Under the pieces are notes generated by a model that made no database searches, had not been told where the DNA came from, and saw nothing but the letters and a program-made list of their open reading frames with translations. Of a DNA stretch of 64,000 bases, positions 16,740 to 47,100 are shown piece by piece. Position numbers and translations under genes: made by a program. The number at the start of each line of letters is the position of its first letter. The stretch's first letter is position 1. The DNA is from an uncultured Clostridia bacterium (lineage in GTDB: Bacteria > Bacillota > Clostridia > TANB77 > CAG-508): positions 14,041 to 78,040 of the forward strand of contig CALXVB010000002.1 of NCBI GenBank assembly GCA_944391855.1, given 5' to 3'.

Positions 16740-17498
16740 ATGCCAGAAGGCTTAGACTCTAACAAAAAAGCAAGGCATTTATATTTAGAATTAGGAAAAC
16801 GAAGCTTTTATGATAGAAAGTTTGACCATATGATGTTTGACGAAGAAGAAACTATGTCTATATATTCTTATAAACCATATTCAAATCCTAATATAATCAT
16901 TTGTACTACATTATCAAAGCAGTATAAAGAATTATTAGACAAGGCTGGTATTAGGTCAAGACTTATTAGTGATAAACTAGGACATATGTTTTTAATATAT
17001 GAAGACCAAAATGGAGTAGAACATGTAACAGACTTAACACGTGATTTAAAAAACATTCAGTTTAATTGTAGCACCTCGTATTTTGCAAGAGGTACAATAG
17101 ATAGTAGTGATTTAAGACAAATGGATATAGATTTAGGATATATATCTAAAAACAGAGGATATTCAAATGATTACTGGTCAATTTTAAGAAATAAACTCTC
17201 AAATACTAGTTGCTCTACTCAAAATAAATTTGAAATTACGTTAAGCAGTCTTAAAGAATTTGGAGATTTATCAAAACTTGGAGAATCAGAATTATTTGCT
17301 ATATATGAAAAATTTGTAAGATATTGTAGTAATAATGGTTTTAAAGCAATTTTTTCTAGTAGTAAAATAACAGGGAGATCAGAAGAATACAGAGTACAAC
17401 TAATTGCTGATGGCAAAAGAATAACTTACTTATTAAATAGAAAAACACTAGAATTCGAAAAAGAAAGTGAAAAAGATTTAGAAGAAATAGGAAGATGA
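16740..17498 (+). CDS. hypothetical protein
   Basis: 252 aa; its stop TGA is the first 3 nt of the 29-nt palindromic repeat. Confidence 0.55.
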   Translation: MPEGLDSNKKARHLYLELGKRSFYDRKFDHMMFDEEETMSIYSYKPYSNPNIIICTTLSKQYKELLDKAGIRSRLISDKLGHMFLIYEDQNGVEHVTDLTRDLKNIQFNCSTSYFARGTIDSSDLRQMDIDLGYISKNRGYSNDYWSILRNKLSNTSCSTQNKFEITLSSLKEFGDLSKLGESELFAIYEKFVRYCSNNGFKAIFSSSKITGRSEEYRVQLIADGKRITYLLNRKTLEFEKESEKDLEEIGR

Positions 17499-17616
17499 AC
17501 TTTAGGGACGTTCTTTAAAGTTCATCTTCCTATTAATACTTTAATTTTAATTATTAATGTTTTAAATTGTTTACAAATTTATATTTTTGAACTTTAAAGA
17601 ACGTCCCTAAAGTTCA
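17496..17616. repeat. MITE-like element: 29-nt arm TGAACTTTAGGGACGTTCTTTAAAGTTCA and its exact reverse complement, separated by a 63-nt AT-rich spacer
   Basis: Arms at 17496-17524 and 17588-17616. Identical arms recur at 23905 and 23984. Confidence 0.8.
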
Positions 17617-17703
17617 TTATTGATTAGAATTGTTAGTGTTTTTTTCACCTTTTTTGCTATTTCCTTTTTTATTGTTCTTTTTATTATTAGTATTCTCTGA
17701 CAT
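17617..17703 (-). CDS. small N/K-rich hydrophilic protein (28 aa), possible minor small acid-soluble spore protein
   Basis: GGAGGTG RBS 8 nt before ATG; MSENTNNKKNNKKGNSKKGEKNTNNSNQ; not in the ORF track. Confidence 0.35.
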   Translation of the reverse strand: MSENTNNKKNNKKGNSKKGEKNTNNSNQ

Positions 17704-17834
17704 ATATATGCACCTCCAATCTTACTTAAATTATGTACAAAATAATGGCTTTTATTCATTAGAAAAGAAGAAGGTTGAAAAAATTTTTTCTTGTGATATA
17801 ATTCTTATATTAATTGGATAAGAGAGGTAATTTA

Positions 17835-18518
17835 ATGAATAATATTGTTATAGGTATAGAAGGATTGGTAGGAAGTGGAAAAACTTCTATTTGTAAAGAA
17901 TTATTAAAATATATTCCGAATAGTATTATATTACATGGTGGAAATTTATATAGAGGAATTGTATATGCATTAATGTCTTCAGAGCATATTAATATAAAAG
18001 AGCTAAAGGAAAGTGTTAAAAATGTAAATGTCAAAGAATTAATGAATAGGCTTGGTGTAGAGTTTAAAATAGAAGATAGAGAAACAGTTATATACATAAA
18101 TGGTAAAAAAACAGATGATGAAATCCTGCAGTCTAAAGAAGCATCTATGGCGGTGTCTATTACGGGCGGAAATGCCGACAATACAGCCTTCTATAGTTTT
18201 GCAAGAACTCTGATAGATATGTATAAGCAAAAATTTAATGTTATTGTATCTGGAAGAGATTTAATGAATATTTATCCTAATTTAGATTATCACTTATTTA
18301 TAGAAGCTAGTTTGGACGAAAGAGTAAAAAGAAAATTAAAACAATATGGAAATGATGCAAATTATGAAGAAATAAAGAAAAATATATTATCAAGAGATGA
18401 ATTACAAGAAAAAGCGGGATACTATAAAATATATGATAAAACAATAAGGATAGACGTAACAGACTGTAATACAATAGAAGAATCTACTAAAAAAGTGTTA
18501 CAAGAAATACATATATAG
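17835..18518 (+). CDS. cytidylate kinase-like family protein
   Basis: GIEGLVGSGKTS P-loop and a Cmk-like ..IEASLDERVKR motif; RBS GAGAGGTAA. Confidence 0.6.
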   Translation: MNNIVIGIEGLVGSGKTSICKELLKYIPNSIILHGGNLYRGIVYALMSSEHINIKELKESVKNVNVKELMNRLGVEFKIEDRETVIYINGKKTDDEILQSKEASMAVSITGGNADNTAFYSFARTLIDMYKQKFNVIVSGRDLMNIYPNLDYHLFIEASLDERVKRKLKQYGNDANYEEIKKNILSRDELQEKAGYYKIYDKTIRIDVTDCNTIEESTKKVLQEIHI

Positions 18519-18534
18519 GAGGATTGGCAATAAT

Positions 18535-44802: not shown

Positions 44803-45984
44803 ATGGAAACTATAGTCTTAAAATTTGGAGGAAGCTCTACTGCAGACAATATAAAATTAAATATTGTTGCAAACAAAATTATTGATTTTTATAATAAGAA
44901 AAACAAAGTTATTGTTGTTGTTTCAGCACAAGGAAAAACAACAGATAATTTAATAAAAGAGGCAAAAGAATTATCATACGAGCCAGATAAAAGAGAAATG
45001 GATGTACTACTTAGTACAGGAGAACAAATGTCAAGCTCAAAACTAGCAATATTGCTTAATCGACTAGGATATAATGCTGTTTCTCTAACTGGATGGCAAG
45101 CAGGAATTTATACCTCGAACATAAATGAAGAAGCTAAAATTGAATACATTAATACCGAAAGAATTAAACAAGAGCTAGATAATGGAAATATTGTGATAAT
45201 AGCAGGTTTTCAAGGAATAAATGATAAAAAAGATATCACAACTTTGGGTAGAGGAGGTTCTGATACAACAGCTGTAGCAGTAGCAGCAGCTATGAAAGCA
45301 GACCACTGTTATATATTCTCTGACGTAGATGGAGTGTACTCTACTGACCCTAATAAAATTACTGATGCTAAAAAGATAGAAGAATTATCATATGATGAAA
45401 TGCTTGATTTGTCTAACGAAGGCGCAAAAGTATTGCACAATAGATGTGTAGAAATTGCACAAAAATTTAATGTATTGATAGAAACAGGTTCAACATTTAA
45501 TAATAATTTTGGAACACAAATAAATAATAAAATAGAAGAAAGCGCAGTAAAAAGCATAGTAAAAAATGATAATTTATTCTTGATAACTTTAAAATATGAA
45601 AACTATAATGCAGACATGTTAAATAAACTATATTTCACTTTATTAAATAATGGAATTATACCAACAAACATGATAAATAACAGTATTAATAGTTTTAATG
45701 TAAGCTTTACAATAAAATCAGCAGATTTAGGAAAATTCCAAGAATTATTAGGAGATGAATTAAAAGATTTTACTTCATCATTTACTAATATATCAAGAAT
45801 TTCCCTTGTCGGATATGGAATAATGAATAATGAAAACATTATAAAGAAAACATTAGAGTTATTAAATATAAACTCTGTAGACATATTTTCTATGCAATTA
45901 GAAGAATGTAAATTATCAATTATGACCAAAGAAAAAGTAAATAACAAATTGTTAGAACAGTTACATCATGAATTAATAGTTTAA
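44803..45984 (+). CDS. aspartate kinase
   Basis: LKFGGSS..VVVSAQGKTTD kinase N-terminus; ACT-like C-terminal half. Confidence 0.9.
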   Translation: METIVLKFGGSSTADNIKLNIVANKIIDFYNKKNKVIVVVSAQGKTTDNLIKEAKELSYEPDKREMDVLLSTGEQMSSSKLAILLNRLGYNAVSLTGWQAGIYTSNINEEAKIEYINTERIKQELDNGNIVIIAGFQGINDKKDITTLGRGGSDTTAVAVAAAMKADHCYIFSDVDGVYSTDPNKITDAKKIEELSYDEMLDLSNEGAKVLHNRCVEIAQKFNVLIETGSTFNNNFGTQINNKIEESAVKSIVKNDNLFLITLKYENYNADMLNKLYFTLLNNGIIPTNMINNSINSFNVSFTIKSADLGKFQELLGDELKDFTSSFTNISRISLVGYGIMNNENIIKKTLELLNINSVDIFSMQLEECKLSIMTKEKVNNKLLEQLHHELIV

Positions 45985-46001
45985 AATTAGACAAAGAGGT
46001 C

Positions 46002-46034
46002 AACGTGGACTACTTCATATTTGTCCACGTTAAT
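46002..46034 (+). terminator. rho-independent terminator
   Basis: CAACGTGGAC..GTCCACGTTA hairpin. Confidence 0.75.
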
Positions 46035-46091
46035 TTTAATAAATTAAGAGAGGAGATTTATGGAATATTACAATCCATATAAAAGTAACAA

Positions 46092-47081
46092 ATGGCATTT
46101 TATTCATATATCTTTTCAGCAAATTATAAAAGATTTTTTAATAACATAAAAAAAGTAGCAGAAAAGGAACATAAAAGCTTTATAAAAATGGTATTCGATA
46201 CAGGATACTGTGTATTTAGATATGGATTTGGACTTACAGATTATTTAAATTATCAATTATATAATAAAAATAAATCTGAAAGAAAGAAATATTTAAGCAC
46301 TAAAAAAGAAAATAAATTTTATGAGATAGTATCTCCAAGTGCATATAAACAAAGATATACAATAAAACCTAATTTTTTAGAAGATTTCAAAAAATATACA
46401 AAAAGAGACTTCTTTGTACCTAAAGAAGGAAATTTTGACGAATTTATAAATTTTTTAGAAAAACATGAGGTATTCATGTCTAAACCATACGACGGGCTTG
46501 GTGGCGCTGACGTAAAAAAAGAATATGCTAAAAATATAGAAAACAAAGAAGAATATTTTAATAATGCAATACAAAATAGAATATTTCTAGAAGAATTAGT
46601 AGTTCAGCATCCTGAAATGAATAAATTATGTAGTACAAGTGTAAACACTATGCGTATAATGACTTTTAACAATCATGGTAATCCACGAATACTTTGGATG
46701 GGATTAAGAGTTGGAAATGGAATAAATGCTATCGACAATTTTCATGCTAAAGGCATGGCTGTAAATATTGATATAAATACTGGAAAACTTGTAGGAAATG
46801 CCATAGACAAGGATTTAAATGAATATATAGAACATCCAACTACACATATAAAATTTAACGGATTTCAAATTCCTTGCTTTGAAGAAGCAAAAAAAATGGT
46901 ACTAGAAGCAAGCCTTGAAAGTGACAAAATATTAGTTGTAGGTTGGGACGTAGCTATATCTGATAAAGGACCAGTTATAATAGAAGGAAATAGGAGACCA
47001 GGATTTGATATAGTACAAGTCTTATCCGGTGGAAGAGTTGATATTGTAGACAATGTACTAGCAGATATGAATGAACTATAG
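46092..47081 (+). CDS. sugar-transfer-associated ATP-grasp family protein
   Basis: ATP-grasp C-terminal half; family-typical aromatic N-terminus. Its stop TAG is embedded in a solo 29-nt repeat arm. Confidence 0.65.
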   Translation: MAFYSYIFSANYKRFFNNIKKVAEKEHKSFIKMVFDTGYCVFRYGFGLTDYLNYQLYNKNKSERKKYLSTKKENKFYEIVSPSAYKQRYTIKPNFLEDFKKYTKRDFFVPKEGNFDEFINFLEKHEVFMSKPYDGLGGADVKKEYAKNIENKEEYFNNAIQNRIFLEELVVQHPEMNKLCSTSVNTMRIMTFNNHGNPRILWMGLRVGNGINAIDNFHAKGMAVNIDINTGKLVGNAIDKDLNEYIEHPTTHIKFNGFQIPCFEEAKKMVLEASLESDKILVVGWDVAISDKGPVIIEGNRRPGFDIVQVLSGGRVDIVDNVLADMNEL

Positions 47082-47100
47082 GGACGTTCTTTAAAGTTCA
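47072..47100. repeat. solo copy (1 mismatch) of the 29-nt palindromic unit
   Basis: TGAACTATAGGGACGTTCTTTAAAGTTCA. Confidence 0.75.

Follow-up and report, generated by a model that had tools for sequence, protein, structure and literature searches.

Introduction

To our knowledge, repeats of the repetitive extragenic palindrome (REP) type and their uses in mRNA stability, termination, translation coupling and as targets of insertion sequences (IS) and phages are known almost entirely from Proteobacteria. There, REPs, bacterial interspersed mosaic elements (BIMEs) and the REP doublets called REPINs are mobilised by REP-associated tyrosine transposases (RAYTs, TnpA_REP); the gene of such a RAYT, a Y1 HUH transposase present in single copy, is itself flanked by the repeats (a REPtron). 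They are imperfect palindromes of 20-40 nt, extragenic and present in many copies, which occur as solos, inverted doublets and clusters, favour the 3' ends of genes and the gaps between convergent genes, have a lineage-specific sequence and leave no target-site duplication (TSD). In E. coli, some REPs reportedly lie at most 15 nt from a stop codon, and some stabilise the upstream mRNA. Here, a 29-nt palindrome, TGAACTTTAGGGACGTTCTTTAAAGTTCA, was studied in a stretch of 64,000 nt from an uncultured Clostridia bacterium (contig CALXVB010000002.1, positions 14,041 to 78,040; this whole stretch is referred to as the window). The reading that we lean to, with modest confidence, is that each 29-mer is an autonomous, strand-oriented hairpin module of a large REP-like family, characterised by the apex GGGACG, and acts as a terminator or 3'-end hairpin.

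REP, BIME and REPIN sequences are the closest known kind to these hairpins, which resemble them in size, palindromic form, extragenic many-copy distribution, arrangement as solos, doublets and clusters, preference for 3' ends and for gaps between convergent genes, lineage-specific sequence and lack of a TSD; the REP/BOX-like structure that a sequence-only reading of the window had offered as one possibility is close to the reading favoured here. With a stem of 13 bp and a loop of 3 nt, the units also fall within the size range of REPs (basal stem 7-20 nt, loop 2-5 nt, extragenic, many-copy). By definition, a canonical REP has the tetranucleotide GTAG or GTGG upstream of the foot of its hairpin, at a distance of 0-2 nt (PMC6006769), whereas GT[AG]G was present in the 6 nt upstream of only one of 137 non-redundant units. 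It is the apex that is conserved here and not the foot, the orientation is strongly biased relative to the adjacent gene, the unit sometimes rewrites the last codons and the stop of that gene, no RAYT was found in the DNA searched, and the host is a low-GC Gram-positive spore-former.

Other described repeats resemble the units in part. Pairs of the Neisseria DNA uptake sequence (DUS) and of the Haemophilus uptake signal sequence (USS) are short repeats of which inverted copies form hairpins at gene 3' ends, and the dRS3 repeats of the Neisseria intergenic mosaic elements (NIME) flank variable segments of 50-150 bp, like the pairs in the window. In DUS, USS and dRS3, however, it is the arm that consists of the repeated word, with a free loop, whereas the present units keep their apex and vary in their arms. 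BOX, RUP and SPRITE of Streptococcus and bcr1 of the Bacillus cereus group are, like the units, small non-coding dispersed repeats of Firmicutes, capable of forming hairpins and located near gene ends. These are composite or resemble miniature inverted-repeat transposable elements (MITEs), with a size of 100-200 bp and a conserved interior, and RUP and bcr1 have TSDs and terminal inverted repeats; the conserved entity here is a 29-nt hairpin without TSD.

Confirmation of the family would open a way to study how 3' ends are shaped in the poorly studied gut Clostridia and would point to a copying or binding factor that has not yet been described.

Copies of the 29-mer in the window

The 29-mer was searched for in the window, exactly and with mismatches, using 100 dinucleotide-preserving shuffles as control. 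Four exact copies and one copy with a single mismatch were found (Table 1), while none is expected by chance and no match occurred in the 100 shuffles. The five copies, their coordinates, the arrangement of four of them in two perfect inverted pairs and the spacer lengths of 63 and 50 nt had all been given correctly by the sequence-only reading, as had the stop codons at the plus-strand copies. The spacers of the two pairs, which it had called unrelated, were mutually unrelated on comparison, and the 63-nt spacer had no relative among the other spacers either. What had been overlooked is that the second, minus-strand arm of each pair likewise adjoins a stop codon, that of a minus-strand gene: unit 2 lies 0 nt from the stop of the 28-aa ORF (TTA on the plus strand, 17617-17619), and unit 4 lies 7 nt past the stop of the DUF1980 ORF (TTA at 24020-24022) and is followed on its own strand by TTTTTTAT. 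Each of the five copies borders on the 3' end of a gene, whose sense it shares. Since both arms adjoin the stops of different convergent genes, each pair consists of two units placed back to back, and the inverted pairs of the window appear to be two modules, one per convergent gene, and not one element.

Table 1. Hairpin units and pair spacers in the window.
Feature	Position	Strand	Context
Hairpin with other stem type, same GGGACG apex (TTTACAAAAGGGGACGGGCTTGTTTTGTAAA)	4797..4827	+	Right after plsY stop (4794-4796), before gpsA ribosome-binding site
Unit 1, exact 29-mer	17496..17524	+	Bases 1-3 are the TGA stop of ORF 16740-17498
First-pair spacer, 63 nt, AT-rich	17525..17587		Between convergently oriented units 1 and 2
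Unit 2, exact 29-mer	17588..17616	-	Sense of minus-strand 28-aa ORF 17617-17703
Unit 3, exact 29-mer	23905..23933	+	Begins 4 nt past TAG stop of ytvI (22806-23900)
Second-pair spacer, 50 nt, AT-rich	23934..23983		Between units 3 and 4
Unit 4, exact 29-mer	23984..24012	-	Sense of minus-strand ORF 24020-24565 (DUF1980/TIGR03943 family)
Solo unit, one mismatch (T7->A)	47072..47100	+	Unit bases 8-10 are the TAG (47079) of ATP-grasp gene 46092-47081

As read directly from the sequence, the 29-mer has stop codons in all three frames of both orientations, and the stop codon is provided by the unit in two of the five genes. The solo unit encodes the last codons, (N)EL, and the TAG of the ATP-grasp gene, and TTTCTTT comes next. 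The stem of unit 1 is lengthened by 10 perfectly complementary flanking bases to 23 bp (17486-17534, -30.6 kcal/mol).

The 28-aa ORF beside unit 2 is rich in Lys and Asn (MSENTNNKKNNKKGNSKKGEKNTNNSNQ), is conserved and has a good ribosome-binding site. The gene calls of the relatives L142 and L143 include it too, and it is present in L144.

A constant apex on covarying stems

The unit folds into a stem of 13 bp with a 3-nt loop and one or two G·U wobbles. This structure was assessed on 65 distinct variants, with 500 shuffles and slid registers as controls. Ten of the 13 pairs were changed on both sides and 93.5% of the cells were paired, a fraction that is partly built in by the detection of units (see below); none of the 500 shuffles reached the observed values, and all slid registers were beaten as well. 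The consensus of the unit is N5-TTT-R-GGGACGTTC-Y-T-TAAA-N5'. The G10·U20 wobble was kept in 62 of the 65 variants and G11 pairs with C or U, and because of these wobbles the hairpin is more stable on one strand (-12 kcal/mol in sense against -7 kcal/mol in antisense for the window variant). With a covariance model, the five window copies scored 40-45 bits on the strand given in Table 1 and 18 bits on the opposite strand.

The apex GGGACG and the G·T wobble are constant, whereas the outer stem covaries freely. The outer five pairs were found in fully compensated forms (TGAAC/GTTCA, CGGGA/TCCCG, GGGGA, AGGGA, TGCAA, AACAA and others), AGATG is a further stem type that carries the same apex, and distant relatives have entirely different stems (TTGCCA...TGGCAA, TTGTCA...TGACAA, AGATGTTTTT...AAAAACATCT) around an unchanged GGGACG. 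The hairpin between plsY and gpsA, for which TTGTCAAAAGGGACGGGCTTTTTTGACAG (L014, position 3984) served as comparison sequence, is probably a member of this wider superfamily of GGGACG-apex hairpins.

Two further structures in the window contain a similar motif. Right after the RNase P RNA (7296-7650), a strong terminator hairpin at 7665-7712 has AGGGAC near its apex and matches the covariance model of the family weakly (21.6 bits). A near-perfect palindrome of 62 nt (54736-54797) with arms of 29 nt (GGAACAGGGGGGACACACATTTTGTTTCA) lies just 3' of the penicillin-binding-protein gene 54804-56648(-) and has GGGAC near the top of each arm.

Occurrence outside the window

To find further copies, one genome of each GTDB species was scanned for exact 22-mer matches, and metagenomes were scanned with 19-mer seeds fixing unit bases 6-24. 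The first returned 13 stretches, all from uncultured Clostridia or from Clostridium metagenome-assembled genomes (MAGs), and the second at least 120 stretches, many of them from human gut samples. In about 1 Mb of related Clostridia DNA, made up of many MAGs and gut metagenomes, 162 units were counted, with 69 distinct 29-mers among the matches listed. Nearly all units are intergenic and most are solo. The dispersed repeat family proposed from the window alone is supported by these copies, the lack of which would have spoken against it.

Identical 29-mers were found at five unrelated loci of one genome, and in several species, with unrelated flanks. Stem types are specific to lineages, and in species that are about 70% identical in DNA the units stand after other genes of the same region. 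In viral contigs and in plasmid and phage collections no copies were found, and phage or plasmid cargo was rejected as an identity on this ground. A known RNA family was rejected for lack of a real match in Rfam: at the gathering threshold only the RNase P RNA and one tRNA of the window were matched, and a scan of the locus by E-value gave only spurious matches to long hairpins (plant and animal miRNA), far below threshold. A full-text literature search with the core sequence yielded only unrelated primer matches, and keyword searches on REP and RAYT in Clostridia found no account of such a family. The GGGACG-apex hairpins are apparently a widespread, undescribed family in gut Clostridium genomes and, more broadly, gut Clostridiaceae.

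Two independent short-read contigs (L135, L136) end inside the 29-mer (...TTTAAAGT), and the repeat therefore breaks metagenome assemblies. As the units evolve fast, they could distinguish strains as markers.

Placement and orientation at gene ends

Placement was determined with our own crude ORF calls, and loci with similar flanks were collapsed to 118 independent units. A stop codon was found within 10 nt on either side in 38 of 92 units, compared to 23.5 +- 3.7 for random positions in the same intergenic intervals (maximum 36 in 1000 trials). Among the units at most 15 nt from a gene end, 41 were in sense and eight in antisense (p = 2e-6), and the gene was nearer to the 5' side of the unit in 79 cases versus 24 (p = 5e-8). 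Both orientations occur side by side in one replichore, so the bias follows the genes and not replication. A T-tract (at least 5 T in 8 nt) followed 59 of 136 units (43%), against a background of 18%, and no matching A-run was found upstream. The stop codon of the adjoining ORF is provided by 27 of the 162 units (17%).

Inverted complementarity of the flanks was modestly enriched, with matches of at least 7 nt in 10% of the units and 4% of the controls; the 10-bp extension of the stem at 17486-17534 is one example. Direct repeats of at least 6 nt in the flanks showed no excess (11.9% of units, 10.6% of shuffled-partner controls). Neither window pair has a flanking direct repeat, and the ATAGCCT repeat around unit 3 is within chance.

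Turnover at orthologous loci

The ATP-grasp homologues L137, L138 and L139, with an identity of 85-92%, lack the unit. Their C-termini are native tails of their own (e.g. ...VLADVKKHKQEQK), longer than that of the window protein, and a classical terminator comes next. The window protein ends in ...VLADMNEL*, where NEL* is encoded by the unit. In a strain of 96% identity the protein ends in ...VLNEL* with the unit 9 nt further upstream, and the contigs of this strain stop inside the unit.

At the ytvI/DUF1980 junction, where the window has a full pair, relatives of 89% identity (L144, L145) lack the whole insert and have their stop codons 2 nt apart (TAActTTA), and relatives of 97% identity carry a decayed TGCCA-type hairpin and one variant unit. 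At the first junction a degenerate unit and a remnant were found in the 97% relatives, and a single hairpin, AACTTTAGGGACG-10 nt-CGTCCCTAA, in the 89% relative L144, which looks like what a doublet would leave on losing its centre. Given the absence or decay of units at the same loci in relatives of 85-97% protein identity, the units are gained, decay and are lost quickly. Over short evolutionary distances, copies come and go at particular intergenic sites, and no TSD is left behind.

Proposed role of the hairpin

Transcribed in sense, the hairpin, with its U-tract where present, would terminate transcription independently of a factor, shield the upstream mRNA as a 3'-end hairpin, or do both. 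A unit on a stop codon may couple the termination of translation with that of transcription, and read-through of a whole pair would form a duplex of 29-31 bp with a stability of -45 to -50 kcal/mol. The sequence-only reading had the palindrome double as a terminator, which the sense placement at gene ends and the T-tracts make plausible.

Several points weigh against the favoured reading. Of the features of an intrinsic terminator, the hairpin and the sense placement are present, but the T-tract follows only about 43% of the units and two of the five in the window. About 31 units are antisense, with the 5' end 0-12 nt from the ribosome-binding site of an oppositely read gene; this class is unexplained by a terminator role, and a 5'-leader hairpin is one possibility for it. 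A copying enzyme was not found by Pfam and NCBIfam scans of the window, nor in the 1 Mb of related loci by phmmer, the latter a weak negative. The gene calls in the related loci are crude, and orthologous loci from different samples may inflate the counts despite the clustering of flanks. The paired fraction and the conservation of the core are partly built in, as the seeds fixed bases 6-24 and detection required at least seven of nine outer pairs; copies not derived from the seeds (G9 variants, TTGCCA and TTGTCA types) also retain GGGACG, and the diversity of the outer pairs is not built in. Finally, activity as terminator or stabiliser is something that we infer.

Because the invariant apex sits on freely covarying outer stems, a trans-acting factor may read the GGGACG/G10·T20 apex of the folded single strand. 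It could be a copying enzyme, possibly an HUH/RAYT-like nuclease since no TSD is made, or instead an RNA-binding factor. Copying would proceed via a single-stranded intermediate. That the apex and its G·U wobble are the recognition element of a dedicated, undescribed factor common to many gut Clostridia is put forward tentatively, as one possibility that we hold to be rather unlikely. The factor could then be an enzyme spreading portable terminator hairpins without GTAG guide or TSD, or a protein that binds or processes RNA at hundreds of mRNA 3' ends and, for the antisense class, at 5' leaders near ribosome-binding sites.

Alternative explanations

A REPIN-type doublet deserves consideration first, although we think it doubtful. 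The inverted pair itself would be the mobile entity, folding into one long single-stranded DNA hairpin and moved in trans by a single-copy RAYT (a Y1 HUH enzyme), and solos would be decayed doublets. Between neighbouring units less than 300 nt apart, 15 convergent, 15 direct and no divergent arrangements were counted; the spacers of the convergent pairs cluster at 43-55 nt, and the direct pairs have a fixed spacing of 46-47 nt. A doublet would also agree with the long duplex into which a pair folds, the lack of TSDs, which is what HUH enzymes would leave, the occurrence of the TTGCCA and TTGTCA subfamilies as tight inverted doublets, and the single hairpin of L144, which looks as though a doublet had lost its middle part and may be compared to the 'double foot' REPs (PMC6006769). 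Group 1 RAYTs have been reported in Clostridia (PMC5581495). However, solos are the majority, spacers are unrelated from one pair to the next, the GT[AG]G foot is nearly absent, and the adjacency of both arms of the window pairs to stop codons fits two independent gene-end modules. An IS200/IS605-type TnpA, which the sequence-only reading had suggested looking for, was not found in the window by Pfam scans, and phmmer searches of all ORFs of the 1 Mb of loci with IS200 TnpA and the E. coli RAYT gave no Y1 transposase, which is a weak negative. The only hit of the Pfam/NCBIfam transposase scan of the window ORFs was a short Phage_integrase-family ORF (53395-54051), more than 6 kb from the nearest unit.

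The direct repeats of units (L041, L058, L069, L101, L108, L002, L011, L046, L080) always have this spacing of 46-47 nt. In some of them the linker contains TTTTTGCATCTYCTTG...TCAAGCTTTTGA, which on the other strand is a ribosome-binding site and ATG CAA AAA TGA running into the unit, and the lineage with direct repeats may possess a composite module about 76 nt long. Beside the units in general no conserved linker or tail was found, a few local sub-groups sharing a 46-47-nt linker (TTTTTGCATCTYCTTGTTTTTCAAGCTTTTGA...). In the CGGGA-type lineage (L016, L047, L090, L120, L129; L067, L130), the arrays differ between samples by whole sub-modules, with a 21-nt indel (AAATCCCGAGGGAACGTCCCC) and either two or three tandem units joined by a fixed T-rich linker. 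This variation from sample to sample indicates slippage, and a search for filled and empty sites among the metagenome loci found only the 21-nt slippage variants of these arrays.

Ordinary intrinsic terminators, alike by convergence or by shared ancestry of the neighbouring DNA and without any copying, are an improbable explanation. The units have in common with rho-independent terminators a sense stem-loop just past the stop, a frequent T-run, and their position where relatives have a classical terminator, which the unit replaces at the ATP-grasp locus. Yet the same sequence stands at many genes, more than half of the units are without T-run, and the antisense subclass lies by ribosome-binding sites. 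That identical copies stand between unrelated flanks, both within one genome and between species, already contradicts the explanation; in addition, units occupy loci at which relatives with proteins 89-92% identical have none, their stem types are lineage-specific, and contigs break inside them as they do at true repeats.

A MITE, as the sequence-only reading had first described the pairs, with the 29-mers as terminal inverted repeats of a 108-121-bp non-autonomous derivative of a DDE transposon, is largely refuted and we give it very little credence. Two perfectly inverted 29-mers about 50-60 nt apart have the total size of a typical MITE, and the ytvI pair is absent from a relative. But TSDs do not exceed the control level, the internal sequences are unrelated between copies, and inverted pairs are matched in frequency by solo units and by direct pairs. 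The supposed terminal repeat is itself palindromic with variable outer bases and a fixed centre, the two arms belong to different genes, and at the corresponding junction relatives show a single arm, an arm in decay, or none. Neither a transposase gene nor an IS with such ends was found in the window, the 1 Mb of loci or the plasmid and phage collections, and the latter hold no copies of the unit.

Equally hard to credit is a site for a protein that binds double-stranded DNA, be it the operator of a dimeric regulator (the regulator binding site of the sequence-only reading), a tyrosine-recombinase core site (11-7-11) or a short invertible switch with the units as its inverted repeats. An 11-7-11 layout around an asymmetric centre can be read into the 29-mer, inverted repeats do bracket short segments, and the window contains the Phage_integrase-family ORF mentioned above; but the centre is invariant and the outer arms vary with compensation, the opposite of known recombinase and dimeric regulator sites, each genome has tens of copies, most of them at the 3' ends of genes, and spacers of 43-63 bp are very short for looping. 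Against a switch in particular, of which both orientations would be present in populations, only one spacer orientation was seen across samples (window versus L134; L046 versus L066), and a flipping promoter within the window pairs would have no gene to drive, the genes on either side being convergent.

Integron attC sites have conserved R''/L'' and L'/R' outer boxes (GTTRRRY), a variable centre and extrahelical bases, and form cassette arrays beside intI. They were rejected, as the units show the reverse, with variable outer ends and a conserved centre, there is no intI gene, and it is core genes (murD, ytvI, secA, yabP), in both orientations, that are concerned. Also considered, and set aside for misfit of their architecture, were CIRCE/HrcA, the LexA box, Bacillus Ter/RTP sites, CsrA GGA loops, a mimic of the tRNA T-arm and the NusG TTNTTT pause motif.

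Other features of the window

The window, with a G+C content of 28%, belongs to the core chromosome of a spore-forming Clostridium. Its genes include der, plsY, gpsA, the RNase P RNA, uvrBA, a cmk-like gene, murD, ytvI, secA, prfB, yabP/yabQ/divIC, rho, ack and pta. The uvrB gene (11109-12930) is present as two overlapping ORFs, 11109-11789 (UvrB_inter) and 11710-12930 (Helicase_C, UvrB, UVR), a frameshift; the gene is a pseudogene or the assembly is in error.

At about 50 kb the gene orientation and the GC skew switch, and the G+C content is very low between 50 and 54 kb (0.22-0.26). The region 50000-54100 contains an AbiEii toxin ORF (51351-51872, minus strand) and the short Phage_integrase-family ORF of 218 aa (53395-54051, plus strand), and may be what is left of an integrated element, may lie near the replication terminus, or both. 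In the relatives L142 and L143, synteny is broken elsewhere by integrase fragments.

The tRNA-Cys gene (34268-34342) is followed by a second low-GC block (0.24-0.26; region 34268-42520), which encodes three radical-SAM proteins, a SDR, a HAD hydrolase, a phosphorylase-like protein and a Na+/H+ antiporter and may be an acquired biosynthetic island.

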